Below are positions 4,269 to 37,765 of a DNA stretch of 64,000 nt, in pieces. The DNA is from a virus, in the IMG/VR virus record IMGVR_UViG_3300023172_000016, positions 1-64,000 of that record; one strand, given 5' to 3'. The first letter of the stretch is position 1, and every line of letters begins with the position of its first letter. The notes beneath the pieces are model-generated. The model made no database searches, was not told the DNA's origin, and saw nothing but the letters and a program-made list of their open reading frames with translations. The translations under genes were made by a program, and so were the position numbers.

Positions 4269-5195
4269 TTATCTTTCATTGATAACGTGCATTTTTTCGA
4301 CCCCCTTGTTTGATATAACTATGTACAGCCCCTTTAGATCTTGGTATGGTATCTCACTGCCTTTATAAACTAGATTTCCCCAGAAATCATAAACCGAATA
4401 ATGGCCGGGTAATTCGTTTTCATCTATGGAGACTGTTGAATTAACTACATTAAAAGTCCACTGAGCCCTCTGGGTTCCTATTAATTGACCGTTCCGATAA
4501 TCGTCAATTTGGAATCCGGTAGCATACTTACCTAACGTGGAAGGTATCCAGCTAATACTGTCATTGTCAACATGCATGGAAAGTTGTGAATACACTTGGG
4601 GAACAAATACACCATTGGCATATCCATAGTGAAGATCGGTTTGGCTTATCTCCACTACATCACCATCCAGCTCGTTTAGAAAACAATTGATAACACCCCA
4701 TACAGGTTTCATTGTATTCCTTGTGCTAACCTGCTGATTAATTATAAAAGGAACCCTAGCAAATGGGGTAGAGTTATTTGGTATATGCCAATAATCTACA
4801 GAGATGATAAATTCTGAATTCATTGAATTTGTGGAATTGTCTAATCCCGCCCAGCAGCAATTTTTGTAAATAAACCTATACTTATTAGAATCTAAGTCAA
4901 GATAGTCGGAGGTGTAGTTCACAATATTCTGTCCTTGGAATGGGATTGGGAGCGAACCCATTGTGAGGGTAACAGTCCCGTTTTGTACATACCAACCCAC
5001 CGAATTCATTTCCCATTTTTCCACCGTGATACTATTGGGTGGTGTTATCCCTTGGCTATCTGCGATAAGCCAAACCCCTATTGCTGTTGAATCTTGTGAG
5101 GTTTGTGCTACCGAGATCATACCCCCCATAAGGTGAGTAGCTTGTGCAGATGTTGTTATGATGATCCCTAGAAGGATCGGGAGTATATTTTTCAT
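4269..5195 (-). CDS. Secreted protein with T9SS-like C-terminal sorting domain
   Basis: Start moved to MKNILPILLG (signal peptide ...SAQA|THLMGG); CCW motif; C-terminal YDFWGNLV...LKGLYIV...K resembles a type A T9SS CTD. Confidence 0.6.
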   Translation of the reverse strand: MKNILPILLGIIITTSAQATHLMGGMISVAQTSQDSTAIGVWLIADSQGITPPNSITVEKWEMNSVGWYVQNGTVTLTMGSLPIPFQGQNIVNYTSDYLDLDSNKYRFIYKNCCWAGLDNSTNSMNSEFIISVDYWHIPNNSTPFARVPFIINQQVSTRNTMKPVWGVINCFLNELDGDVVEISQTDLHYGYANGVFVPQVYSQLSMHVDNDSISWIPSTLGKYATGFQIDDYRNGQLIGTQRAQWTFNVVNSTVSIDENELPGHYSVYDFWGNLVYKGSEIPYQDLKGLYIVISNKGVEKMHVINER

Positions 5196-26295: not shown

Positions 26296-27087
26296 TTATT
26301 CTTTTATCTGTGTGTCCGGCATAATTTGGGAAAGGTACATATTGGAGTCAAGAATAACTTTTTCACAATTTCTCTGTTCAGACATTTCACTAATCCACTC
26401 ATCCCAATATTCATCCAGGAGGTTAATAAACGACTCTGGATTACCCCTCAGCCTGTATCTTCTGATATACTCATCCTTTAAAGACCTTTTTGGGTAAACC
26501 AGAACAAATGGAATATTATATTTTTCTAAAGCATCCCTAACCGTTTTATGAGAGGAAACTAGGATACGATCTATAGAAGGGTCATTAATTTTCTCCTCAA
26601 TATGTTTAATGTAATTTTCTGGGAAATCCTCCTTAGGGAATTTAGAGCTGTCTAAATCTAAAACACCAAGATCGGAAATATCAGAATATGTTGATTTACC
26701 TGTTCCAGGAAATGCTGAATAAACTTTAATCCTGTACTTTGATTCTTTCGGTGGATCGTCATAAAGCCCCATCTCTTGGTCTAGTCTCATCATTTCTGTG
26801 AGTGCTTTTTCTCTGATTGTTTTTTGAATCCCCTCTTCATCAGCTGCTTTTCTAACAGCATCTAGCAACGATTCTCTAAGATCCTCAAACTCTATATCGG
26901 TGTGTGGTGAGTTGTAGCATTCAAACTCAATTCTATCAACAGAGTTATCACGAAGACCTACGACATGGTAGTCATCCATCTTCTTTTGTAAATCCTCGAA
27001 AGCTATTTCTTCTATCTTTCTGGAGTCAATAGATCCAATAGGAAATCTAACTACCAGTATCGGCTTTGCTATTTTCTTTTTCGTCAT
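26296..27087 (-). CDS. Two-domain protein with C-terminal P-loop kinase-like domain
   Basis: SAFPGTGKST Walker A, DLDSS, LVSSH. Confidence 0.65.
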   Translation of the reverse strand: MTKKKIAKPILVVRFPIGSIDSRKIEEIAFEDLQKKMDDYHVVGLRDNSVDRIEFECYNSPHTDIEFEDLRESLLDAVRKAADEEGIQKTIREKALTEMMRLDQEMGLYDDPPKESKYRIKVYSAFPGTGKSTYSDISDLGVLDLDSSKFPKEDFPENYIKHIEEKINDPSIDRILVSSHKTVRDALEKYNIPFVLVYPKRSLKDEYIRRYRLRGNPESFINLLDEYWDEWISEMSEQRNCEKVILDSNMYLSQIMPDTQIKE

Positions 27088-27281
27088 GCGGTTCTTTTTA
27101 ATCCATGTCTTCCTTCGAAGGGTGGTTATTTGGTCTTCCTAGAAAGTCAGTTCTTTCACCCTTCTCCTCCTTATCATAACCCCATTTAAAGATTCTAAAA
27201 ACCATAACTAATCCGGCCAAGCCGAACATTAGGATAAGGGAAAGTAGTGGAAAATCAATCATAGTTTTTAATTTTTGTTAG

Positions 27282-27353
27282 TAGCCCCGCCAGGAATCGA
27301 ACCTGGATCAAAAGTTTAGGAAACCCCCATTCTATCCGTTGAACTACGGGGCC
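27282..27353 (-). tRNA. tRNA-Arg(CCT)
   Basis: GGCCCCG/CGGGGCT acceptor stem, loop TTCCTAA, GGTTCGATTCC; G.U-rich anticodon stem. Confidence 0.85.
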
Positions 27354-27369
27354 AGCATTTATTTGTTAA

Positions 27370-28047
27370 TTAAATATAAGATTTTCTAAACAATGCTATA
27401 ACATCCTTTGCGTCATCAACAGCATCGTGTGTGACAACTTTATCCAAACCTGCTCTTTCCTTGCAAAGGCTTAGACCTGGAAGAGATTCATCATTTTTCC
27501 AATCCGTAAATAATACACTTGGATCTAAAACCCTTTGTCTAATCCTCACTAGTTGTTTCCATCTAGGAAGTCTAACTAAGAACTTCATATCGAAAGTAGC
27601 AAAGTTTTTCCCAGCTGCTGATATGGTAATTGGTCTGGTTTTGTTTGTAATTGCTGGTAGCATTTTGCCATTTTTCCTCGTGACATAACCATCAGACACT
27701 GGATCGTTTAGTTTAACGAAACCATTCTCTGCTAACCAATAATAGAACTCTTCTGCAACATCATCCTCATTCATGAATTTCATGCCTGTGAGTCTTTCAA
27801 GATCAAATATTTCACTATCGTCCTCGGCTGTTTGGTAATGAACAATGGATTCGATGATTTCCTTGTTCATGTTAATTGCATAAGGAGATCCCTCGATTCT
27901 TTTGTGTAAGATAGCTGCATGGAAGGTCGGAAGATCCTCCATGGGTTTAATGTTGTTGGTGTCTTCAATGACTGCACCAATTGTTAGGATCTGACAATTT
28001 TCTGGGTCAAGTCCTGTGGTTTCTAAATCTATGCTTATGTACTTCAT
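27370..28047 (-). CDS. DEDDh 3'-5' exonuclease
   Basis: SIDLETTG, GKNFATFD, HDAVDDA. Confidence 0.85.
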   Translation of the reverse strand: MKYISIDLETTGLDPENCQILTIGAVIEDTNNIKPMEDLPTFHAAILHKRIEGSPYAINMNKEIIESIVHYQTAEDDSEIFDLERLTGMKFMNEDDVAEEFYYWLAENGFVKLNDPVSDGYVTRKNGKMLPAITNKTRPITISAAGKNFATFDMKFLVRLPRWKQLVRIRQRVLDPSVLFTDWKNDESLPGLSLCKERAGLDKVVTHDAVDDAKDVIALFRKSYI

Positions 28048-28057
28048 TTATCTCCTA

Positions 28058-28390
28058 TTATGATCCTACTTTCCTTGAATTTTTGTGATTTGTCCTTATG
28101 ATTATCTCAACCTCACGGTCGTCTAAAATTCCAAAATTAACTTCTTCCTGTTCTTTCCAAGCTTTATACTGTACTACATAGTTTCCTTGTATAACTATTT
28201 CGTACTTGGAAGGCTCGTTTATAACCTCATATCTAATGAGGATACAATATGCGCTTGGGAAAGAAACCGATTTAACATCTACGACACGGTCCTCAGTTTT
28301 TTTGATTTTCTTCTGTGAGAACTTATTTACCCATTTCCAGAATCTATTTTTTCCTGGATTGCCCAATATTTTAAATTGCATAACTTTCAA
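28058..28390 (-). CDS. Hypothetical protein
   Basis: 110-aa ORF. Confidence 0.45.
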   Translation of the reverse strand: MKVMQFKILGNPGKNRFWKWVNKFSQKKIKKTEDRVVDVKSVSFPSAYCILIRYEVINEPSKYEIVIQGNYVVQYKAWKEQEEVNFGILDDREVEIIIRTNHKNSRKVGS

Positions 28391-28452
28391 TGACTGGTGT
28401 ATCTTTCTATCCTCAATAATAGCATTGTTTCCCGTAATAAAAAAACGAGCAC

Positions 28453-28480
28453 AAAAAAGGCCTCAATATTTGAGACCCTT
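28453..28480 (-). terminator. Intrinsic terminator
   Basis: GGTCTCAA-ATA-TTGAGGCC followed by T6. Confidence 0.65.
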
Positions 28481-28503
28481 AATTTTCTGTGAGTTTATAA
28501 CTC

Positions 28504-28695
28504 TTAGATGAATAGAATCAAATCACCAAACGAATCCCAATCACCATTGTCCTTTTCAGATTCTTTATCCGAATCATCATGTTCGTTCTCGGTTATTTCA
28601 GAATAGTAATCCCCGTAGGAATCATAGTGTGGAAGGAAAAAAGGATGGTCGGCTGCAGATTTTTCTGGGTTGTTAGGGGAAGGTGGCTGGTTCAT
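28504..28695 (-). CDS. Small acidic hypothetical protein
   Basis: 63-aa ORF behind GATAAATA at 28717-28724. Confidence 0.45.
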   Translation of the reverse strand: MNQPPSPNNPEKSAADHPFFLPHYDSYGDYYSEITENEHDDSDKESEKDNGDWDSFGDLILFI

Positions 28696-28748
28696 TTTGT
28701 GGATTGGATTTTCTTGTATTTATCTTAGAATTTATTTTTTTTAAACTG

Positions 28749-28821
28749 AGGCACAGACTGGATTCGAACCAGTGAATAACGGATTTGCAGTCCGCTCCCT
28801 TAGCCACTTGGGTACTGTGCC
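28749..28821 (-). tRNA. tRNA-Cys(GCA)
   Basis: GGCACAG/CTGTGCC, loop CTGCAAA, U discriminator. Confidence 0.92.
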
Positions 28822-28984
28822 TTATGCAGGTACAGGAGTTTGTATTTTAGACCCGGTTGGAAGTTGAGCGCTTGCTAATTCTTTTGCAATTATAGAATTT
28901 GGTGCTTCGATATAAAGTCTTAGTGTTCCTCCCCTTTGTAAAATATAATCAACCCTGTATTTCATCTCTTAATTAATTAGTTAG

Positions 28985-29070
28985 TAGTCCGGGCGGGACT
29001 CGAACCCGCACGAGCATTACTGCTCAAAAGATTTTAAGTCTTTCATGTCTACCGATTCCATCACCGGACC
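28985..29070 (-). tRNA. tRNA-Leu(TAA)
   Basis: Loop CTTAAAA, long variable arm GAGCA-GTAA-TGCTC. Confidence 0.92.
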
Positions 29071-29104
29071 AACTCCACAAATCTAAGATATGGCTGGAAA
29101 ATGT

Positions 29105-29974
29105 CTACGATCTTTTTTGGTAAACTTTCAAGTTTTTAACAATCATGCTTCCCTCTGTGGGTGAATTACCATCTTTGGGCTCTTTTAATCCATTATTTAA
29201 GATAATAAATTGTTCAGCAGAATTGCACTTTAGCATTGCATGAATTTTACAAACTTGAACCAGTTGTCCGTCGAAGTAGATCTTTATAAACTTATCAGTC
29301 CAGTGAATTGCATACTGAACAAATCTATCCTGCGGATCTTTGACAAATATTCTAGGCGCTCCGTAATCCTTCTTACCTTCTTGCCAAGTATTCCCTGTTC
29401 CCCAATGGATGTTTGGTTTTAATGAAATATCATTTACATCCTGATCTGTATAAGCCTCAAAAATATCAATCTCTGGTGGCCAGGAGTTAGTACCACTGGT
29501 CCAAAATGCTGACCATTGCATTTCCTCTTTTGGGAGCTGAATCTCAGCTTCTATCCAGCCATACTTAAAAGATCTTTTTGAACTTATCAAACCAGAAGCC
29601 CAAGGAAGCGTAAACTCATCAGGAAGTTCGGGTTTTTGTTGCCATTGGGGTAGATCCTTTTTGTATATGGTTTTTGGTAAATATTTGTTTTCTAAAACCA
29701 AACCCTCCTTCGTGTTTTTAGTAGCTTCACCCGTCCAATACCACCAAAGTTGATCTGTGTGGAAAAATCCCCAGGGCTGGCCATATCTCCATTCATCCAT
29801 GTTGAGTGAAGTGGAGGTGAAATCATCTTCGAAGGCTAATACATATCCCTCGGGCGGAAGAACCTTTCTTTCGCCAGTAACCTCTTTTTTAGAAAGCCTC
29901 CAAGCTTTGTATTGTAACCAAAAATTATAAAGGTTACCCAAGGGGATTCTTTGTAGATAGTGTTTAAGTACCAT
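29105..29974 (-). CDS. Glycoside hydrolase family 16
   Basis: FEDDF, FKYGWIEA, WSAFW, WPPEIDIFE catalytic motif. Confidence 0.88.
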   Translation of the reverse strand: MVLKHYLQRIPLGNLYNFWLQYKAWRLSKKEVTGERKVLPPEGYVLAFEDDFTSTSLNMDEWRYGQPWGFFHTDQLWWYWTGEATKNTKEGLVLENKYLPKTIYKKDLPQWQQKPELPDEFTLPWASGLISSKRSFKYGWIEAEIQLPKEEMQWSAFWTSGTNSWPPEIDIFEAYTDQDVNDISLKPNIHWGTGNTWQEGKKDYGAPRIFVKDPQDRFVQYAIHWTDKFIKIYFDGQLVQVCKIHAMLKCNSAEQFIILNNGLKEPKDGNSPTEGSMIVKNLKVYQKRS

Positions 29975-29988
29975 AGATATATTTTTAT

Positions 29989-30564
29989 CTATATAACCAC
30001 ATTAAGAGACCTGTTGAAAATATATCCCCATATTCTTTCCATCACACAGGGAAAATCATCGTACTCCTCATGCATTTCCATAAGTCTTTCGTAAAATTCC
30101 TTAGACCTAGATTTTATTGAAGATGCAGGAACAACAAACTGAGCTCCAGCAAAAAAGGAATAAAAACCCAATCTAAAACCAAAGATTCTTTTGAAGTATT
30201 CGTCGAGTCTCAGACCTACGTGATCCGGCCATCCATTCCCGGCAGAACCGAAAAAATATCTACCGAAGGGATTGAAATATATAAAATCCTTTCCAGAATT
30301 TTCTTGCTGAACTATCTCTTCAAAGATTGTGTCATGGTTTGCGTGATCGAACGGATTTCCTTGAAGAAAACAATAATTTCCATCTAACCTTTCATAATTT
30401 TCGACTATAAAGGAAATGTATGTATAGGACTCTCTTCCTATATTTGGCATGAATTTGTTGTTTAGGAACTCTGAATTTTCTTCTTTCTTTATAACAAAAA
30501 CTTCCCCAGGCAGGTCTCTTGACCAACTCACATCTTCCAAATATTGGGCTATTACATATTTCAT
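29989..30564 (-). CDS. DUF3431-like protein
   Basis: VIAQY.ED.SW, PNIGRESYTY, FLQGNPFDH, GAQFVV, ERIW. Confidence 0.7.
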   Translation of the reverse strand: MKYVIAQYLEDVSWSRDLPGEVFVIKKEENSEFLNNKFMPNIGRESYTYISFIVENYERLDGNYCFLQGNPFDHANHDTIFEEIVQQENSGKDFIYFNPFGRYFFGSAGNGWPDHVGLRLDEYFKRIFGFRLGFYSFFAGAQFVVPASSIKSRSKEFYERLMEMHEEYDDFPCVMERIWGYIFNRSLNVVI

Positions 30565-30586
30565 ATTGTATTTATTTATTTATTTG

Positions 30587-30659
30587 CACGCCAGGTAGGA
30601 TTCGAACCGGCGAATAGCGGTTTTGCAGACAGATCCATTAACCACTTGGGTACCTCGCC
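30587..30659 (-). pseudogene. Chimeric pseudo-tRNA (Cys-like 5' part with GCA anticodon, tRNA-Trp 3' end)
   Basis: Acceptor, anticodon and T stems mostly mismatched; 3' 14 nt identical to the tRNA-Trp 3' end at 31306-31319. Confidence 0.7.
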
Positions 30660-30660
30660 A

Positions 30661-31290
30661 TTATTTTATCCATCTATGATAATCCATATTTTGCATTTGG
30701 ATATCACTAAACCCAACTCTCTGAAATGCAATTGATGGAGAAAAGCAATATGCCTTACATCCCTTTTGTAAATCAGTAAGCATCACATCCAATGGTGCAT
30801 TCTTTTTAGATATCCGATCCAGAAAATTTCTAAAGAATTTACTGTTAATGCCAACAGCGTGAGTTGAGAATGTGTGATGCACTTGAACTAAATTCTCAGA
30901 TACCTGGATTGGAGCCTTAGCCCCTTTATGAGAGTTGTGATTACCACCAAAATATAAAAGGTCCCAGTCACCCGGAATTTGTTGACTCAATTCACTGAAA
31001 GACTCAATCTCTGGTGTAAAGTAGCAGTCATCCTCAAGGATTAATAGATTACCAGAGTTTCCTTCTATACATTTTTCGACTATATCAATGTTGGAAAGGA
31101 CCAGACCCAGCTCGGATGTTTTAATCGAGGTTTCTTTTGGATTTAGTTTCTTTCCGTCATAAGCAGAAAACCGCTGGACATTTTCTATATCCCATTTTTC
31201 GAACTCCAAAAGAGATTCTTCCCACTTGTCCATCCTCCTATCTAAATTGACACAAAATATGGATTCAAAGAAACTATTAATACCGGACAT
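30661..31290 (-). CDS. Glycosyltransferase family 25-like
   Basis: CVNLDRRMDKW, RFSAYDG, LILEDD, DWDLLYFG. Confidence 0.8.
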   Translation of the reverse strand: MSGINSFFESIFCVNLDRRMDKWEESLLEFEKWDIENVQRFSAYDGKKLNPKETSIKTSELGLVLSNIDIVEKCIEGNSGNLLILEDDCYFTPEIESFSELSQQIPGDWDLLYFGGNHNSHKGAKAPIQVSENLVQVHHTFSTHAVGINSKFFRNFLDRISKKNAPLDVMLTDLQKGCKAYCFSPSIAFQRVGFSDIQMQNMDYHRWIK

Positions 31291-31306
31291 ATGTTATTTA
31301 TCTTAG

Positions 31307-31379
31307 CACGCCAGGTAGGGCTCGAACCCACGGCCCTCGGTTTTGGAGACCGATGCTCTACCAACTGAGCTACTGGCGT
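31307..31379 (-). tRNA. tRNA-Trp(CCA)
   Basis: ACGCCAG/CTGGCGT, loop CTCCAAA. Confidence 0.93.
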
Positions 31380-31385
31380 AAATTG

Positions 31386-31468
31386 TTGGCAGGGACGGAT
31401 TCGAACCGCCGTACTCCGAAGAGAGCAGATTTACAGTCTGCCGCCTTTAACCACTCGGCCACCTACCA
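31386..31468 (-). tRNA. tRNA-Tyr(GTA)
   Basis: Loop CTGTAAA, long variable arm, TGGTAGG/CCTGCCA acceptor. Confidence 0.9.
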
Positions 31469-31479
31469 ATTTTGTACCC

Positions 31480-32160
31480 CTATTTCTTTCTAATTACCAG
31501 TTTAATATTCGGACCAGCGACGTAATGATCACCTAATATCTCCCATTCAGATTCTGGAAATTTACAATAGTGATAAATCATAGAACCCTTTCCCAATATT
31601 TCCTGACTTACTGTGTATTCATCAGTTTTAACAAATTCACCGTTGGAAAAGATGTTCCAGTAAATAATGGTGCCCTGCATGAAATTATCATCTACTGCAA
31701 TATAGGATCCGCTTTTCATTTTATCCTTAATTGCCAAAAACTCTAAAAATCCATGGAGCATTGAAGGTTCAGGGTTATAGATGTCCAGATCCCACGAATC
31801 AAGATGTACAAGATCTGGGGAACCTTCAAATTCCCTTAAAAACTTAACAGAATCCATCTTATAATGGTGAGAATTGTTAAATTCCGGTAAGGTCTCTTTT
31901 AAAAGCGATTCACTTCTTTCTGAGATCTCCTGATCTATATCAACTGAGTGGAATTCCCCTCCGTTCTCAAATGCCAAATGAGCAAAAAGAAAACCGAAGC
32001 ATCCATCTTCTAAATTCTGACTAGCTCCAGTTTCTATTACACGAAGATTATCTACCGTATGTAGATCAATCAGGTTAGAAATAACTTGAGCCTGACCTAT
32101 CCTATAGGAAGGTGGTGAAATGGAATTAAAGAATTCCAAAGATTTTTCCCAATTTTTCAT
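31480..32160 (-). CDS. Class I SAM-dependent methyltransferase-like protein
   Basis: VIETGAS, SVDID, DSVKFL, DLVHLDSWD, IAVDDN. Confidence 0.7.
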   Translation of the reverse strand: MKNWEKSLEFFNSISPPSYRIGQAQVISNLIDLHTVDNLRVIETGASQNLEDGCFGFLFAHLAFENGGEFHSVDIDQEISERSESLLKETLPEFNNSHHYKMDSVKFLREFEGSPDLVHLDSWDLDIYNPEPSMLHGFLEFLAIKDKMKSGSYIAVDDNFMQGTIIYWNIFSNGEFVKTDEYTVSQEILGKGSMIYHYCKFPESEWEILGDHYVAGPNIKLVIRKK

Positions 32161-32174
32161 AATATCCGTATTTG

Positions 32175-32275
32175 TAATCGCGATTGGATTCGAACCAATT
32201 CCAGCTTTTCCATTCAGAGTCAGCCTTACTGTTACTCAACCTTGGGAGGTGCTTCCAACCAATGGACTCGCGATT
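32175..32275 (-). ncRNA. tRNA-like RNA with acceptor stem and T arm but no D or anticodon arm
   Basis: AATCGCG/CGCGATT 7-bp stem, ATTGG-TTCGAAT-CCAAT T arm; TAACTTTG box at 32292-32299. Confidence 0.75.
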
Positions 32276-32332
32276 GTTTTTTATTACTTAGCAAAGTTAA
32301 GCGAATGTGCCGCTAAATAAAAATAGCTTTCC

Positions 32333-32521
32333 TTATTTCTTAAGGACTTTCTTAGATCTCTCTGCTAACCAGACAGCTCCACTTTTTTTGAATTCCTTCC
32401 AGTTATCAAAATCCCGTAGATCCTGTATAACCTCATCTGGAATAAGTGTGAATCCCTCAGGTGCTATGCCCTGATATTTGTAATACACAGAATTCTCGAT
32501 TTTTTCTTGTATGTCTGACAA
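32333..32521 (-). CDS. Hypothetical protein
   Basis: 62-aa ORF within the tRNA region. Confidence 0.45.
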   Translation of the reverse strand: MSDIQEKIENSVYYKYQGIAPEGFTLIPDEVIQDLRDFDNWKEFKKSGAVWLAERSKKVLKK

Positions 32522-32542
32522 TGTATCGTGGGTTATTTTTAG

Positions 32543-32618
32543 AGCCGAAGGCAGGAATCGAACCTATCGCGTCAAGACCAGTTTTGGCTGGCTTGCTCTG
32601 CCACTGAGCTACTCCGAC
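32543..32618 (-). tRNA. Atypical tRNA, anticodon undetermined
   Basis: Canonical TAGCTCAGTGGCAGAGC D arm and GGTTCGATTCC, but anticodon arm GCCAG-CCAAAA-CTGGT has a 6-nt loop without U33. Confidence 0.6.
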
Positions 32619-32620
32619 TT

Positions 32621-32696
<76 letters not shown>

Positions 32697-32701
32697 TTTT
32701 G

Positions 32702-32775
32702 CTCCCCCACCTGGGCTCGAACCAGGGACCTATTGATTAACAGTCAACCGCTCTAACCAACTGAGCTATGGAGGA
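32702..32775 (-). tRNA. tRNA-Asn(GTT)
   Basis: TCCTCCA/TGGGGGA, loop CTGTTAA. Confidence 0.95.
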
Positions 32776-32819
32776 ATAGAAAGGTCCGGGCCCAAAAATA
32801 GCCCTTTTGAAGACCTTAG

Positions 32820-32892
32820 TTGCGGGAGAAGGATTCGAACCTCCGACCTCCAGGTTATGAGCCTGGCGAGCTACCTCTGCTACCATCCCGCG
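32820..32892 (-). tRNA. Initiator tRNA-fMet(CAT)
   Basis: CGCGGGA with C1:A72 mismatch, loop CTCATAA. Confidence 0.9.
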
Positions 32893-32901
32893 ATATAATT
32901 A

Positions 32902-33006
32902 AAGGAAGGGGAATCTGGCGAGTACTTGTATTTGCCCGTTTCACACCGGTACCAAGCCTCCCGTCTTTTTCCAAATCCTTGCCTCTGTGAATAAGCACCC
33001 TTCCTT
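32902..33006 (-). ncRNA. Unknown structured spacer RNA (about 105 nt)
   Basis: Terminal stem AAGGAAGGG/CCCTTCCTT, inner stem GGATTTGG/CCAGATTC, fills the Gln-fMet spacer. Confidence 0.5.
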
Positions 33007-33008
33007 AG

Positions 33009-33080
33009 TTGCCCCTGCTGGACTCGAACCAACACTGACGGAACCAAAATCCGCTGTCCTGCCAATTAGACGAAAGGGCA
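33009..33080 (-). tRNA. tRNA-Gln(TTG)
   Basis: TGCCCTT/AGGGGCA, loop TTTTGGT. Confidence 0.92.
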
Positions 33081-33086
33081 AGATTG

Positions 33087-33160
33087 TGGGCCCAGCAGGG
33101 CTCGAACCTGCGACCTACTGATTATGAGTCAGTTGCTCTAACCAACTGAGCTATGAGCCC
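33087..33160 (-). tRNA. tRNA with CAT anticodon, probably Ile2 (lysidine type)
   Basis: GGGCTCA/TGGGCCC acceptor typical of tRNA-Ile, loop CTCATAA; elongator Met not excluded. Confidence 0.8.
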
Positions 33161-33166
33161 AGAAAA

Positions 33167-33219
33167 CAGGATGCTTTTTTTGAATATTTGCTGTATCAAA
33201 AAGTTGCTGTATGCATCCT
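33167..33219 (-). ncRNA. UACAGCAA-motif small RNA, copy C
   Basis: AGGATGC-ATACAGCAA...GCATCCTG, same architecture as 35788-35971 and 35976-36033. Confidence 0.7.
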
Positions 33220-33224
33220 TTTAG

Positions 33225-33306
33225 TACCGAGGGTCGGACTCGAACCGACACACCGTAAGGCGCTAGATCCTAAGTCTAGTGCGTCTACCAATTTCGCCAC
33301 CCCGGC
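33225..33306 (-). tRNA. tRNA-Leu(TAG)
   Basis: Loop CTTAGGA, long variable arm. Confidence 0.93.
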
Positions 33307-33310
33307 ATTT

Positions 33311-33375
33311 GCAGGATATCGCTTAACCTGCGGTGAGTGTTCCTTTCACCTTGTTCCCTTTCGGTACTACGATTT
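33311..33375 (-). ncRNA. Unknown spacer RNA with loop-E/GNRA hairpin
   Basis: ATCGT-AGTACC-GAAA-GGGAAC-AA-GGTGA..TCACC-...GCGAT. Confidence 0.45.
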
Positions 33376-33378
33376 TTT

Positions 33379-33466
33379 TGGCGGAGAGGGAGGGATTCGA
33401 ACCCCCGGTACGTTGCCGTACGCCAGTTTTCAAGACTGGAGCATTCGACCACTCTGCCACCTCTCC
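33379..33466 (-). tRNA. tRNA-Ser(TGA), CCA encoded
   Basis: GGAGAGG/CCTCTCC, loop CTTGAAA, long variable arm. Confidence 0.95.
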
Positions 33467-33469
33467 ATG

Positions 33470-33554
33470 TTCGGTTTTGTTCCACATTAGCCCTACCACA
33501 CAGTGGACATGGGTAGGATTTTGACTAAGGTGCTCCTAAGAGCTTTACACCGAA
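33470..33554 (-). ncRNA. Unknown structured spacer RNA, possible pseudoknot
   Basis: TTCGGT/ACCGAA closing stem, GCTC-TTAG-GAGC, CCTACC/GGTAGG, loop TCCAC complementary to downstream GTGGA. Confidence 0.45.
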
Positions 33555-33565
33555 AACCTGATCAG

Positions 33566-33638
33566 AGCCACTGGAGGGACTTGAACCCCCGACAGGCTGA
33601 TTACAAATCAGCTACTCTACCAGCTGAGTTACAACGGC
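33566..33638 (-). tRNA. tRNA-Thr(TGT)
   Basis: GCCGTTG/CAGTGGC, loop TTTGTAA. Confidence 0.92.
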
Positions 33639-33654
33639 TTTTAGGCATTTTCCA

Positions 33655-33670
33655 ACATGTCAAAGAACTG
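33655..33670 (-). promoter_or_regulatory. boxA-like antitermination site
   Basis: CAGTTCTTTGACATGT just upstream of the first tRNA of the array, resembling rrn boxA. Confidence 0.55.
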
Positions 33671-33760
33671 TTTGATTATTTGTCTTTTTTACATCCTGTA
33701 GGATATTATGTTTCCATACAAAAACACAAATAATTACATTTTTTCTCCTCTCAGAGTTTG

Positions 33761-34197
33761 TGGAGCTGGTGGGATTCGAACCCACGTCCAGCTAGGCACA
33801 CCCAGAGAATCTCATTCACAGGCTTATCTAGTTTTTATAAACTAGCAAATCTTTGTCACTTATTTTTTTGGACTGAGATGAGTGACGATACTCAGCGGAA
33901 GACGCTAACAGCGATCTTAAGGGTATTGGACAGTAGTCCTCAGGGTTACTGATCGACTTCCTATTGTGGGTACTTCTAACCCTTATTCCCCGATGTAACT
34001 TTCTGTTCCTAGGCAGTTACCGCCCAATGCTTAGGCTGCAAGAGCAACTTCAGCTGTTTCAACAGAACCTAGTCCTGCCAAAACGAAAAATGGATTTTCG
34101 CCATTTGAAGTGTTACATAGGTTATTAAAGAGTTTCCAATGCTAACTCTGCCTGCAATTCAAAGAACGTTCGCCTCCTGTCGATTCCATTCAGCCCC
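33761..34197 (-). ncRNA. ssrA: tmRNA
   Basis: 5' GGGGCTGAATGGAATCGAC, 3' GGACGTGGGTTCGAATCCCACCAGCTCCA with G3.U pair; tag frame 34031-34102 encodes GENPFFVLAGLGSVETAEVALAA*. Confidence 0.95.
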
Positions 34198-34209
34198 ATT
34201 TCTGTTCAG

Positions 34210-34217
34210 CAAATTTA
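34210..34217 (-). promoter_or_regulatory. Bacteroidota-type -7 promoter box (TAnnTTTG)
   Basis: TAAATTTG 13 nt upstream of the tmRNA; other copies at 34450-34457, 32292-32299, 29078-29085, 37831-37838, 1863-1870. Confidence 0.55.
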
Positions 34218-34249
34218 ATCTTTGTAAGGGATTAAAAAAACTGAGATAT

Positions 34250-34285
34250 AAAAAAACCCAAATCTTTTGAGAGATTTGGGTTTAG
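34250..34285 (-). terminator. Intrinsic terminator, probable attenuator
   Basis: AAACCCAAATCT-CTCAAA-AGATTTGGGTTT plus T run; 5' arm also complementary to 34315-34325. Confidence 0.8.
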
Positions 34286-34310
34286 ATATATCTAGACTTC
34301 TTCTAAGTGA

Positions 34311-34391
34311 TCACCTAAACCCAAAGTGATCCTTGCCTGTTGGGTAAAATCCCAGCGTCCAGATGCACGATATTTGATTTAAATGTTTCAT
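34311..34391 (-). CDS. Putative leader peptide MKHLNQISCIWTLGFYPTGKDHFGFR (26 aa, not in ORF track)
   Basis: ATG...TGA frame, 27 codons; last codons overlap the antiterminator strand; promoter boxes at 34414-34421 and 34450-34457. Confidence 0.65.
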   Translation of the reverse strand: MKHLNQISCIWTLGFYPTGKDHFGFR

Positions 34392-34486
34392 TATAGATGA
34401 AGATTACGGTTATTATATATCAAATCAACAAAAAGTTTCTTTTGCAATGCAAATGTAATATCTTTTTCCACCATAAAAAATGAGCT

Positions 34487-35569
34487 CTAAGATTTAACAA
34501 AATTCCTAATCCTCGAAAGGTACTCTAATTGATTACCCTTAACTACATAAGAATCTCCAACTGAAATGTCTTCAGAGGATATTGTATAATCGATAATATA
34601 ATCCTCAGCTTCATCTAATACTACTCTTTCCCAAGACCATTCACCCCTATTTAATATATAATTTGAATGTAGATCCAATCCAGATCCCTTAATACTTATC
34701 CTAAATTCAGCTTTTTGGAAAGGTGAGGTTGTCTTTAAATTTACAAACAATCTTACCGAACTAAGATCTTGCTGGTCAACAAAAAGAGAGCAAGTTGAAT
34801 TTGTATATAACATAAAATCACTCTTACTCCACTGCCACTTGTGAGTATCCCAATTTAATTTAACTTCTCCACCGAAAAATTGGTTTAGATCATTTCTTGT
34901 CTTTACAATAGATTTAGTTCTCGACTCAATCTCGCACAGGAAATCTTCAAAGACGTAGTTTGGGAATTTTTCTATGAAGTCCCTATTAGTATCATATCTT
35001 CCAAAAGGAAGAGTTAAGTATGTACCCAGATCCAATCTTATAATGAACAAATGTCCGTGGAGCCAGGGTGAATTCGGAACACGGTAGAAAAGCGATGACC
35101 TTCCAAGGGAGTTAAGTTCGGTGCAAAGTGAATTAATTTTTATGTCAAACTCTTTAGGGAATATAAAGTCCGCCTCCATATAAACCACAAAATCATGCTT
35201 TCTAGAGAATGCAGAACCTATTGCTGGCATTAAAAGGTTCACAATGGCCGGAGTATAGCCTATCCATCCCTTATAATCCCGGTAAGCTATATCTCCTGTG
35301 TTTATCCAATTAAAATTTGGTAAAGAATTCACATTTTTCAATATAGCTGGATCTAATATATCGGAATCCTTATACGAAATCTCATTCTTAGAATTGTAAA
35401 GATAGAGGTCTACAATATCCTTAATTTCTTGGGAACAATCTAAATGACTGATGAGCGTAACATACCCGCCTAATGACTTTATAGATCCAATGATTTCTAG
35501 AAGATCCTTCTTCTTTTCTGGAGAATCCGGGAATGCTGAGATTATAAAATTGCAATCAAAGTCTATCAT
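34487..35569 (-). CDS. Hypothetical protein, glycosyltransferase-related
   Basis: 360-aa ORF with LISH, YNSKN, YMEAD (DxD-like). Confidence 0.5.
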   Translation of the reverse strand: MIDFDCNFIISAFPDSPEKKKDLLEIIGSIKSLGGYVTLISHLDCSQEIKDIVDLYLYNSKNEISYKDSDILDPAILKNVNSLPNFNWINTGDIAYRDYKGWIGYTPAIVNLLMPAIGSAFSRKHDFVVYMEADFIFPKEFDIKINSLCTELNSLGRSSLFYRVPNSPWLHGHLFIIRLDLGTYLTLPFGRYDTNRDFIEKFPNYVFEDFLCEIESRTKSIVKTRNDLNQFFGGEVKLNWDTHKWQWSKSDFMLYTNSTCSLFVDQQDLSSVRLFVNLKTTSPFQKAEFRISIKGSGLDLHSNYILNRGEWSWERVVLDEAEDYIIDYTISSEDISVGDSYVVKGNQLEYLSRIRNFVKS

Positions 35570-35747
35570 GATCTAAATCATTTCTTTGGGATATTTCTGG
35601 GAATGCTTGTCGAAGATTTCAACCCTAGGTCCTTCTATGAAATTAACCTCGACTTTTATATTTTCAAAATCCTCCATTTATTTTTCTAACATCATCTTTT
35701 GTAAGTTGCTCAGCAATCTTTTTAGTCTAATAGTCAAGGTTGTTTCC

Positions 35748-35782
35748 AAAAAAAATCCCCAAATCATAAGAAATGGGGATTT
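35748..35782 (-). terminator. Intrinsic terminator closing the DUF2828/small-RNA unit
   Basis: AAATCCCCA...TGGGGATTT followed by a T run. Confidence 0.75.
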
Positions 35783-35787
35783 AAAAA

Positions 35788-35971
35788 CAGGATCGTGATT
35801 AGTATTATTCGGCTCTGCAGCTATATCTCTCTTTACGCCAATGAGAAGTTGACGTCGTGATTTTAGTTTTGAACCAGGTCACTGATCTCCGGGTCTCGTT
35901 AGAGAGTAAGCTTGCGCTGTACTACAACTAACTCTTCATCTAGTATAGAATAGGTTTGCTGTACCGATCCT
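35788..35971 (-). ncRNA. UACAGCAA-motif RNA, copy B (184 nt)
   Basis: AGGATCG-GTACAGCAA...CGATCCTG terminal stem around a long insert. Confidence 0.7.
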
Positions 35972-35975
35972 TTCA

Positions 35976-36033
35976 CAGGTTTCTTTTTATATAACACTTA
36001 TTGGATAGTATAAAAAATTGCTGTAAGAAACCT
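35976..36033 (-). ncRNA. UACAGCAA-motif small RNA, copy A (58 nt)
   Basis: AGGTTTC-TTACAGCAA-TTTTTTATA...TATAAAAA-GAAACCTG. Confidence 0.7.
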
Positions 36034-36322: not shown

Positions 36323-37765
36323 TTAAATTATAATGTCTTTATACCTTTCAGAAAGAATAGTTTCGTTCATCACCTGAAGTGGCGATATAATTTCACCTTT
36401 GCAAATGCTTTTAAGAATTGCCGGCGAGAAACCGCTTACCAAAGCTGTACCAGATTCGGTGAAAGAAACCGGCACATTACCACCTCGGGATTGGATATTC
36501 CAGTAGATGATGGAAGGCATTGAGTATCCAGCTTCAGCATACATCCCTCTGACCATTTCCTGTGCAGTAGGATTCCATTCTACCTGATCAGTTTTATTCC
36601 AATAAGAGTAAGACATAAATGTCGCACTGTCGAATTCCATGTCAGAGAGGATCAATATCTTCGTTGGCATTTCAGATGCAGGTACAGAGTTTTTAACTGC
36701 CTGATCCAATATATGCGAAAAGGTCTTTTGGAGATCCGTGTTCATACCCCAAGCAGCTCTAGATAATTGCGAAAACCTCGACTTTAAATCACCCTTCAGT
36801 ATTTGAATCTCTGGGTTAGCAGAGAAAGTTACAAAAGAGTCCTTAAACGCTCCCTCGTTTCTTTCAGAAATGTACATCCCTAAAGAGATTGCAACATCCA
36901 AGCAAGTAACATTAGAATTTCCACCAGCGGGTGTCATCATTGAACCCGAGGTGTCAACGACTGGAAGAATTCTTTCCTCGCTCCCCTCCATGTAATCAGG
37001 AAGTGCTTTCCATTGCTCAGAGGCAAAGTCTGCATCTCCGTGTTTGAGAGTTTTGGTCACATCATAAGGATAGACTGCAGAAGCATTTACTTTTTCCTCG
37101 CCAGACCTTAATTTCTCAAGATATAAATTATATCTCTCCGAATCGTTTTTGTGAAATGCCTTAGTGTATCTTGCTGCTGCTACTGAAGGAAGCTTACCAT
37201 ACTCAATAGACTCCCAATCTTTAGCACACATAGCCTGCTCGACAACATTTGTGAGGCCAACCAGTGTCTTTCTATATTGCTTAGGTGTGAATCCTAAGAA
37301 GTTTCTTAGTCTGTTTGCTACCGGTCCCTTTCTAGGCATCCATTTAGCACAAAGTCCATTTTCGCTTTCGAGACCACTCTTTATTAGATCTAATGCAGGT
37401 GCTTCGAGCTTGGTGCCAATCAAAGTAAGCAAATCGTCCCATCTTCCATATTCTGGGATGAGATGTAGGTTTTTTCCTAGTATCTCTGGGTTGTCGCTTG
37501 CTAAATATGTAATAATGTCCTTGAAGATCTGTCTTTCTCCTGCTCCACCTCTGATGTCTCTTACCCAAAAAAGAATTCTCATGGCTGTAAGTGGATCCTC
37601 GTGAAACGCAAGTGAGAAGTTTGCAATAAGTCTTTGCTTATCCTGTCCCCTCATAGCACCAATCATGAAGAATAAATCTACACAAGCATTCAAAGAAGAT
37701 GAGTTGGTTGTCATCCCATTTTCCGTGGTGATGTTCTTGGTTCTAAGTGCGTCTGCGAGCTTCAT
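36323..37765 (-). CDS. DUF2828 (TROVE/Ro60-like) protein with C-terminal vWA domain
   Basis: TTENG, VDLFF, RDIRGGAGER, YGRWDDL, AKWMPR, then MIDAS motif DTSGSM, MNTD, SDMEFD, YWN, SGFSP. Confidence 0.85.
   Translation of the reverse strand: MKLADALRTKNITTENGMTTNSSSLNACVDLFFMIGAMRGQDKQRLIANFSLAFHEDPLTAMRILFWVRDIRGGAGERQIFKDIITYLASDNPEILGKNLHLIPEYGRWDDLLTLIGTKLEAPALDLIKSGLESENGLCAKWMPRKGPVANRLRNFLGFTPKQYRKTLVGLTNVVEQAMCAKDWESIEYGKLPSVAAARYTKAFHKNDSERYNLYLEKLRSGEEKVNASAVYPYDVTKTLKHGDADFASEQWKALPDYMEGSEERILPVVDTSGSMMTPAGGNSNVTCLDVAISLGMYISERNEGAFKDSFVTFSANPEIQILKGDLKSRFSQLSRAAWGMNTDLQKTFSHILDQAVKNSVPASEMPTKILILSDMEFDSATFMSYSYWNKTDQVEWNPTAQEMVRGMYAEAGYSMPSIIYWNIQSRGGNVPVSFTESGTALVSGFSPAILKSICKGEIISPLQVMNETILSERYKDIII

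Follow-up and report, generated by a model that had tools for sequence, protein, structure and literature searches.

The window analyzed here, a stretch of 64,000 nucleotides, is the opening part of an IMG/VR virus record of 90.9 kb, whose completeness is estimated at 32%, a combination that points to a jumbo phage, and its minus strand carries nearly all of the genes. The locus of interest lies between the gene of a 360-amino-acid protein, upstream, and a tmRNA gene followed by an array of tRNA genes, downstream. The searches of IMG/VR, PHROG, and Pfam with the 360-amino-acid protein returned no relatives and no family, so that its gene provides no anchor for synteny. Also upstream of the leader described below, the gene at positions 36323 to 37765 encodes a DUF2828/DUF7788 protein of 480 amino acids, assigned to PHROG 850 ("RNA-binding protein"), which has 260 relatives in IMG/VR and often adjoins tRNA arrays in these relatives. 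A blastn search with the region from 33600 to 35600 against the GenBank phage collection gave no match.

The tmRNA gene (33758 to 34197, minus strand) is the first gene behind the putative attenuator and starts 50 nt past the terminator end (34247). It matches Rfam family RF00023 with 85.4 bits (E = 1.6e-32), and Rfam was needed to recognize it, since ARAGORN misses the tmRNA of the window. Near-full-length contigs of the phage tmRNA occur in the metatranscriptomes of four studies (aquatic, salt marsh, freshwater, and estuary). In the relatives L197, L200, and L206, where ARAGORN does read the tmRNA tag, the latter is long, with 23 residues (GEN...ALAA). The array itself (27281 to 33638, minus strand) consists of 13 tRNAs and one odd tRNA-like gene, with protein genes interspersed, and no further tRNAs were found outside this interval in the 90.9-kb record. 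The tRNAs of the window phage include two Leu species, Cys, and Arg-CCT, and lack Ala, Asp, Glu, Lys, Phe, Pro, and Ser-GCT. Of the two tRNAs with a CAT anticodon, the one at 32819 to 32892 presents the C1xA72 mismatch of the initiator type, and for the one at 33086 to 33160 the sequence does not allow us to decide between Ile2 and elongator Met.

The preliminary description had proposed that a short leader ORF followed by an intrinsic terminator precedes this array, and both elements could be confirmed. The leader ORF occupies positions 34311 to 34391 (minus strand) and contains 26 codons followed by TGA, exactly as had been indicated; codons 1 to 16 are referred to here as sensor codons, and codons 23 to 26, together with the stop codon, fall within the putative antiterminator strand. 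Enrichment of Shine-Dalgarno sequences is absent in the phage genes, which have A-rich start contexts, and the start context of the leader ORF is therefore normal for this phage. The lack of Shine-Dalgarno enrichment and the tmRNA tags of the relatives, which start with GEN and end with ALAA, would fit a host of the Bacteroidota type, which remains an inference. The terminator (34247 to 34283, minus strand) features a 12-bp stem, a 6-nt loop, and a run of seven T residues, with the stem-loop extending from 34283 to 34254 and a predicted energy of -14.9 kcal/mol; its stem begins 27 nt after the stop codon of the leader, where a distance of about 25 nt had been reported. A second ORF of 27 codons (34391 to 34474, minus strand), whose end overlaps the start codon of the leader in a TAATG arrangement, is not conserved in the relatives and spans the promoter-like block described below, and it is probably spurious.

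The codon content of the leader is unusual with respect to the tRNAs encoded downstream. The first 22 codons are all different, as had been noticed earlier, with a P value of 0.0016 under the codon usage of the phage genes, and 12 of the first 16 are each read by a different tRNA of the array according to standard wobble rules. This list of matches stands, with the reservation that the identity of the CAT tRNA at 33086 to 33160 as Ile2 could not be resolved. The match of the last codon, AGG, to Arg-CCT is likewise correct, but this codon is part of the antiterminator strand, and close relatives have AGA instead, so that this match is probably incidental; for the same positional reason, the caveat that a stall on the final AGG would not cause antitermination holds. 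Taken over its 26 codons, the leader covers all 13 tRNA species (13/13), with a P value of about 1.5e-5 under a null model based on gene codon usage and of 3e-5 under a second-order Markov null, and it is the sole window with 13/13 coverage among the 54,926 stop-free windows of 26 codons found in the six frames of the 90.9-kb record. When both CAT tRNAs are left out, the coverage is 11/11 (P = 1e-5). The leader codons matched to array tRNAs occur once each and without runs. Holding the peptide fixed, the synonymous codon choice appears weakly tuned in three lineages (P about 0.01 to 0.02) and not significantly so in the others, which indicates that the correspondence between leader and tRNAs lies mainly at the level of the amino acid, that is, of the tRNA family.

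The same arrangement was found in related phages. In one 97%-identical phage (L003, record G002), the layout of leader, terminator, and tmRNA is the same, and the flanks are about 98% identical, in contrast to the ORF, which shares only about 58% identity at the protein level and carries a 3-nt in-frame insertion. Searching with the tmRNA by nhmmer recovered one relative only among the first 80 loci, and additional loci were obtained through pattern scans of IMG/VR and metagenomes, based on the tmRNA 5' end and on the terminator. Most of the 119 metagenome matches to the terminator pattern were set aside as generic, unrelated hairpins without tRNAs. The loci were filtered only for the presence of downstream tRNA or tmRNA genes, which left 17 loci representing about eight sequence variants. 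In all of them (17/17), an ATG-initiated ORF of 25 to 46 codons is present upstream of the array, as expected from the earlier suggestion that short ORFs should be sought there, and in all of them (17/17) it ends 20 to 33 nt before the terminator stem. The leader peptides of the main groups are unrelated to each other, and the frame is kept across indels. In L164, the conserved stretch TTTGGGTTTAGG is read in another frame, from which we deduce that this stretch is constrained as RNA and that the rest of the leader is constrained as an open frame and not as a particular protein.

The arrays of these phages differ in their gene content; those of the G001 type, for instance, include Ala, Asp, Glu, Lys, Phe, Pro, and Ser-GCT tRNAs and have no Leu tRNA. 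The leaders of the relatives cover 13/15, 13/14, 10/10, 14/16, 13/14, 11/12, 10/10, 15/17, 13/14, and 14/14 of the species in their own sets, with individual P values ranging from 2e-4 to 0.19. To define a comparison, a species was scored as absent when missing from a given phage but present in its relatives. On this basis, with seven lineages pooled, a codon for the species is present in the leader in 83 of 91 cases in which the tRNA is present and in 49 of 98 cases in which it is absent (Fisher's exact P = 2e-10), which bears out the prediction that leader codons track the anticodon set of each phage; permuting the leaders against the tRNA sets gave a P value of 0.003. Furthermore, when a leader lacks an amino acid, the accompanying array almost always has no tRNA for it. 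Relatedness among the lineages inflates the pooled P value, and several arrays are cut by contig ends.

A second family of elements, belonging to more distant phages and found only through the DUF2828 protein, has an unrelated terminator, AACCCTGRAC...GTTCAGGGT followed by a T-run, and is located directly downstream of the DUF2828 gene. In its members (L049, L052 to L054, L059, L060, L062, and L079), the array begins with Gln-TTG, and the element occupies the stretch from about 190 to about 30 nt ahead of this tRNA. Here, a 31-codon ORF covers from 10/11 to 11/12 of the non-CAT tRNAs (P = 0.001 to 0.003 in L052, L053, and L060), and its 3' end, GGTTCAGG or GGTTYGGG, is complementary to the 5' arm of the terminator.

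In the window, the corresponding complementarity involves the antiterminator 5' strand, or region 2 (TTTGGGTTTAGGTG, 34312 to 34325, minus strand), which shares bases with codons 23 to 26 and the stop codon of the leader, and region 3 (TATCTAAACCCAAA, 34275 to 34288, minus strand), which comprises the 5' flank and the 5' arm of the terminator and is common to the putative antiterminator and to the terminator. Within these regions, the complementarity of TTTGGGTTTAG (34325 to 34315) to CTAAACCCAAA (34285 to 34275), noted in the preliminary description, was verified. The duplex of regions 2 and 3 has a calculated energy of -17.8 kcal/mol, compared to a mean of -7.1 for shuffled sequences; among the lineages, the values range from -15 to -21 kcal/mol, compared to about -7 for shuffles, with P < 0.01 in 9 of 11 elements. 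In every lineage, this duplex spans the 3' end of the ORF with its stop codon. Moreover, the helix shows compensatory changes at three positions (A-T/G-C, G-C/T-A, and G.T or A-T/G-C), L119 carrying a further variant, so that the forms AG(G/A)/(T)CT, GTG/CAC, and that of L119 can be distinguished. These pairs were counted by a script in a fixed register, since a MAFFT gap splits the register. The geometry proposed by analogy with trp and his attenuators, in which the stop codon lies in the antiterminator strand, is thus maintained in the relatives with compensatory changes. RNAalifold, applied to a 13-sequence alignment, returned only the invariant terminator, and since the loci had been found by the terminator pattern, the invariance of the helix between regions 3 and 4 is uninformative about covariation.

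Two further pairings may take part in the switch. A candidate region 1 (CATTTAAATC, codons 3 to 6, 34376 to 34385, minus strand) may pair with region 2 as an anti-antiterminator; this pairing occurs in the minimum-energy fold of 181 nt, and an analogous CACAAA/TTTGTG pairing occurs in other groups, but the energies of the duplex of regions 1 and 2 are no better than those of shuffles. The second is a local hairpin, GATCAC...GTGATC, around region 2 (34309 to 34331, minus strand), which would compete with the antiterminator. The hairpin had been pointed out before and is present in the minimum-energy fold; it occurs in this window only and is absent in the closest relatives, L200 and L206. A perfect 12-nt palindrome, TAGATATATCTA (34283 to 34294, minus strand), overlaps the 5' flank of the terminator and is kept in the closest group; it may be a mere reflection of the antiterminator strand or may represent a protein-binding site.

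When the leader of the window was folded with masks representing ribosomes, the expected release of the terminator by a stalled ribosome was obtained for stalls at codons 17 to 20 only and failed at most of the sensor codons, a poor performance at equilibrium that we attribute to the sequestration of part of region 2 by the local hairpin and that makes this copy the least clean of those folded. In a queue model, the ORF 5' of the stalled ribosome is kept covered and the footprint is masked before folding. Under this model, the terminator probability amounts to 0 to 0.3 with the leading A site at codons 1 to about 20 and jumps to about 1 past codons 19 to 22 in L200, L088, L127, L157, and L119; the flip from the antiterminated to the terminated state is partial in L089, L124, and L164. 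With a mask for a single ribosome, the logic of the alternative pairings 1:2, 2:3, and 3:4 works for stalls at codons 1 to 10 in L089, L088, and L127. No switch was obtained by equilibrium folding in L087 or in the second element of L119. The latter locus (L119, positions 374 to 804) contains two tandem units of leader ORF and terminator before one tRNA array, of which the first switches cleanly in the folding model and the second does not. Attenuators act kinetically, and these folding results are equilibrium estimates, which neither prove nor exclude function.

As for the origin of the transcript, a promoter-like block, AAACTTTTT and TTTGATATATAAT separated by about 12 nt, is located at 34412 to 34439 (minus strand), with its GATATATAA core 21 to 22 nt before the ATG of the leader. 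The GATATATAA core shows no variation among 13 aligned homologues, and the leader of the second family is preceded by a comparable ACTTTTT...TATTTATAA block; TTTGATATATAA was not found as a recurrent motif in the window. Downstream of the terminator, the box TAAATTTG (34210 to 34217, minus strand), a -7-like element of the Bacteroidota type and a possible P2 promoter of the tmRNA, lies 13 nt ahead of the tmRNA, and a TAnnTTTG box is found 12 to 18 nt before the tmRNA in most relatives. In the window as a whole, TAnnTTTG is not enriched (58 occurrences versus 73 expected), and sigma-70-like sites are fewer than expected from shuffles. The promoter role of the block at 34412 to 34439 is therefore an inference and, like the other promoter calls, relies solely on conservation and position. 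Further TAnnTTTG boxes occur within the array at 29078 to 29085 (minus strand), 8 nt before tRNA-Leu(TAA), and at 32793 to 32800 (minus strand), 18 nt before tRNA-Asn, and it is possible that these are internal promoters, as had already been suspected.

One metatranscriptome contig has the adapter right after position 34202, 5 nt ahead of where the mature tmRNA starts, which is compatible with a primary transcript initiated from the box. This contig end and the retention of the box in most relatives uphold the earlier caveat about independent transcription and imply that the tmRNA of the window need not depend on read-through. The tmRNA of the window probably has its own basal promoter, and regulated read-through past the attenuator would come on top of it. 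A contig of 151 nt from run X1 covers the leader and the terminator and continues for 14 nt past the T-run, with a depth of 3.7 versus 28 for the tmRNA; it is no more than a weak hint and could be due to DNA carry-over. In general, metatranscriptome contigs cannot give transcript ends or levels, and the lack of coverage from 34424 to 34800 is uninformative.

These observations also favor plain insulation, according to which the hairpin merely ends an upstream unit, be it that of the 360-amino-acid protein or that of a small protein, the TAnnTTTG promoter alone drives the array, and the peptide encoded by the ORF has a function of its own or none. The box following the terminator in most lineages, the contig end at 34202, the greater depth of the tmRNA than of the leader in run X1, and the equilibrium fold of the window, which mostly favors the terminator, all agree with it. 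However, insulation leaves unexplained why an ORF is conserved with an unconserved peptide and with the frame change of L164, why a covarying complement of the terminator arm lies exactly at the stop codon, and why the leader tracks the tRNA set of each phage. It also fails to account for L190 and L194, in which the TAnnTTTG box is deleted and the leader is kept: about 15 nt are left there between the T-run and the tmRNA, and with the box lost, read-through is the only evident route to the tmRNA. We consequently hold insulation to be unlikely. The deletion in question, of about 46 nt, was seen at positions 5040 to 5060 of L190 and at the homologous site of L194, in two contigs from different samples.

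It can also be imagined that the element works without translation, as an RNA switch or a source of small RNA, or as a riboswitch-like element recognized by a protein or a tRNA, with the ORF as a by-product. The alternative pairings are indeed conserved at the RNA level, as is the palindrome at 34294 to 34283, and small RNAs derived from attenuators are known, as in the case of rnTrpL (PMC6614838). On the other hand, a frame of 25 to 46 codons remains open in about eight diverged, AT-rich lineages, for which the chance is about 0.16 per lineage by an estimate from base composition; indels preserve this frame, and its codon content follows the tRNA sets. Furthermore, no Rfam family matches the region: in a scan from 26500 to 36000 at E <= 1, neither the T-box nor any other cis-regulatory leader family was found at 34200 to 34450, the Trp, His, Leu, and Thr leader families gave no match, and the only hit was a chance-level one of NsiR1 on the terminator (22 bits, E = 0.85). 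We regard a translation-independent element as quite improbable on these grounds. As for mere coincidence, in which a spacer would contain an ORF by chance and its codons would have been matched to tRNAs post hoc, partial matches are common because the phage tRNAs, with standard wobble, read about 34% of the codons in the phage genes, but the first rank of the leader among the 54,926 windows of the genome and the replication in lineages with unrelated peptides and in a family with another terminator make this explanation hardly credible.

On balance, we consider it likely, though well short of established, that the element is a ribosome-mediated, leader-peptide transcription attenuator heading the tmRNA and tRNA array. 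What is observed is the architecture with its conservation and covariation, as well as the tracking of tRNA sets by leader codons; that the ORF is translated, in which direction the switch works, and what triggers it physiologically are inferences. The transcript would start upstream, probably at the GATATATAA block, or derive from read-in from the 360-amino-acid protein gene, and would carry the 26-codon ORF. Ribosomes reaching the stop codon would cover region 2, so that the terminator would form and transcription would end before the tmRNA; should the leading ribosome stall earlier, region 2 would be left free, the antiterminator would form, and RNA polymerase would read into the tmRNA and tRNA genes, whose mature RNAs would then be released by RNase P and other processing. 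Since the leader would need nearly each phage-encoded tRNA species, in terms of amino acid, about once, it could report the decoding capacity for those codons, and this readout would feed back on the supply of tmRNA and phage tRNAs. Thus, more tmRNA and tRNA would probably be made when ribosomes read the leader codons slowly, a response that is itself inferred. Phage tRNA genes are usually discussed as an aid to codon usage or as a replacement for tRNAs destroyed by host defenses. The preliminary description named anticodon nucleases as an example of what might be sensed; this specific idea is possible, and the data fit a plain feedback on decoding capacity equally well.

It is possible to hypothesize, much more tentatively, that each gain or loss of tRNA genes leads to a rewriting of the leader, an evolvable "test strip" acting as a sensor for counter-defense: cleavage or depletion of the host tRNAs for any sampled codon, by anticodon nucleases or through host shut-off, would stall the ribosome and open the way to the tmRNA and the replacement tRNAs, in a design recurring in unrelated lineages. 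We look upon this extension as speculative and rather doubtful at present.

The anatomy just described is that of a classical attenuator. Enterobacteria possess several leader-peptide attenuators (trpL, hisL, pheL, leuL, and thrL), and the leader of ilvGMEDA is multivalent. The phage element shares with them a short leader ORF, whose translation is inferred here, an intrinsic terminator, and an antiterminator strand masked by the ribosome at the stop codon, as well as the principle that a ribosome stalled upstream frees this strand and allows read-through into the downstream genes. Different from the enterobacterial leaders, in which the repeated codons specify one to three amino acids and the genes under control encode biosynthetic enzymes, the phage leader contains about one codon each for 11 to 16 tRNA species and would control tRNA and tmRNA genes; in addition, it is phage-borne, has no sequence similarity to them, and may be followed by a second promoter after the terminator. 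In the pheM leader of the pheST operon of Escherichia coli, a leader peptide exerts feedback on the decoding capacity for the sensed codons. The phage element resembles it in that attenuation would act on genes of the translation apparatus serving the sensed codons, with the difference that pheM senses a single amino acid and that the product under its control is a synthetase, with no tRNAs or tmRNA. T-box riboswitches sense tRNA charging through a terminator/antiterminator switch upstream of translation-related genes; they bind one uncharged tRNA directly and need no translation, and no specifier structure was found here. Among the leaders described in the literature, besides the pheL attenuator (PMC3082878), the uORF attenuator of whiB7/wblC in mycobacteria and streptomycetes has a variable coding content that sets which shortages are sensed (10.1101/2023.06.02.543512). 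Knockdown of tRNAs, synthetases, or amino acid synthesis activates it via stalling and antitermination, which makes it a broad sensor of translation stress (10.1101/2023.06.02.543512). It is the nearest functional analogue of the phage leader, from which it differs in that it controls the transcription factor of a stress regulon, is enriched in alanine, is nonviral, and does not mirror co-encoded tRNAs.

In the literature searched, phage tRNA arrays were nowhere described as being under leader-peptide control, an absence that is no proof. Within that literature, what appears new with respect to the known anatomy is the target, namely, tRNA and tmRNA genes, and the use of codons present once each that covary with the gene content. 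To our knowledge, how the expression of phage tRNA genes is controlled is essentially unknown. If our interpretation is correct, this would be the first leader-peptide attenuator described for tRNA and tmRNA genes. It would also be the first to sample a large variety of codons, one occurrence apiece, in keeping with the set of genes it controls. A ribosome rescue RNA placed first behind a stall sensor would be biologically coherent and new. The model of feedback on decoding capacity, possibly including the sensing of defenses that target tRNAs, is directly testable. In addition, the combination of a short ORF, complementarity of its end to one arm of a terminator, and a tRNA array downstream could serve as a signature for annotating such switches in metagenomic phages, and the element would provide a compact natural design for synthetic sensors of "translation health."

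Finally, the odd tRNA-like gene of the array (32542 to 32618, minus strand) adjoins tRNA-Gly and is called "Phe-AAA" by ARAGORN here and "???(aa)" in relatives. It was not counted among the 13 tRNAs of the preliminary description, and three TTT codons occur in the leader ORF. The gene has a poor anticodon stem, a match to the Rfam tRNA family of 28.3 bits, just under the cutoff, and a weak match to YrlA (Y RNA-like) of 27 bits, and it is kept across the clade (L089, L127, L157, L164, L190, L200, and L206). Together with the DUF2828/DUF7788 protein, it could constitute an RNA-protein module instead of a tRNA employed in decoding.
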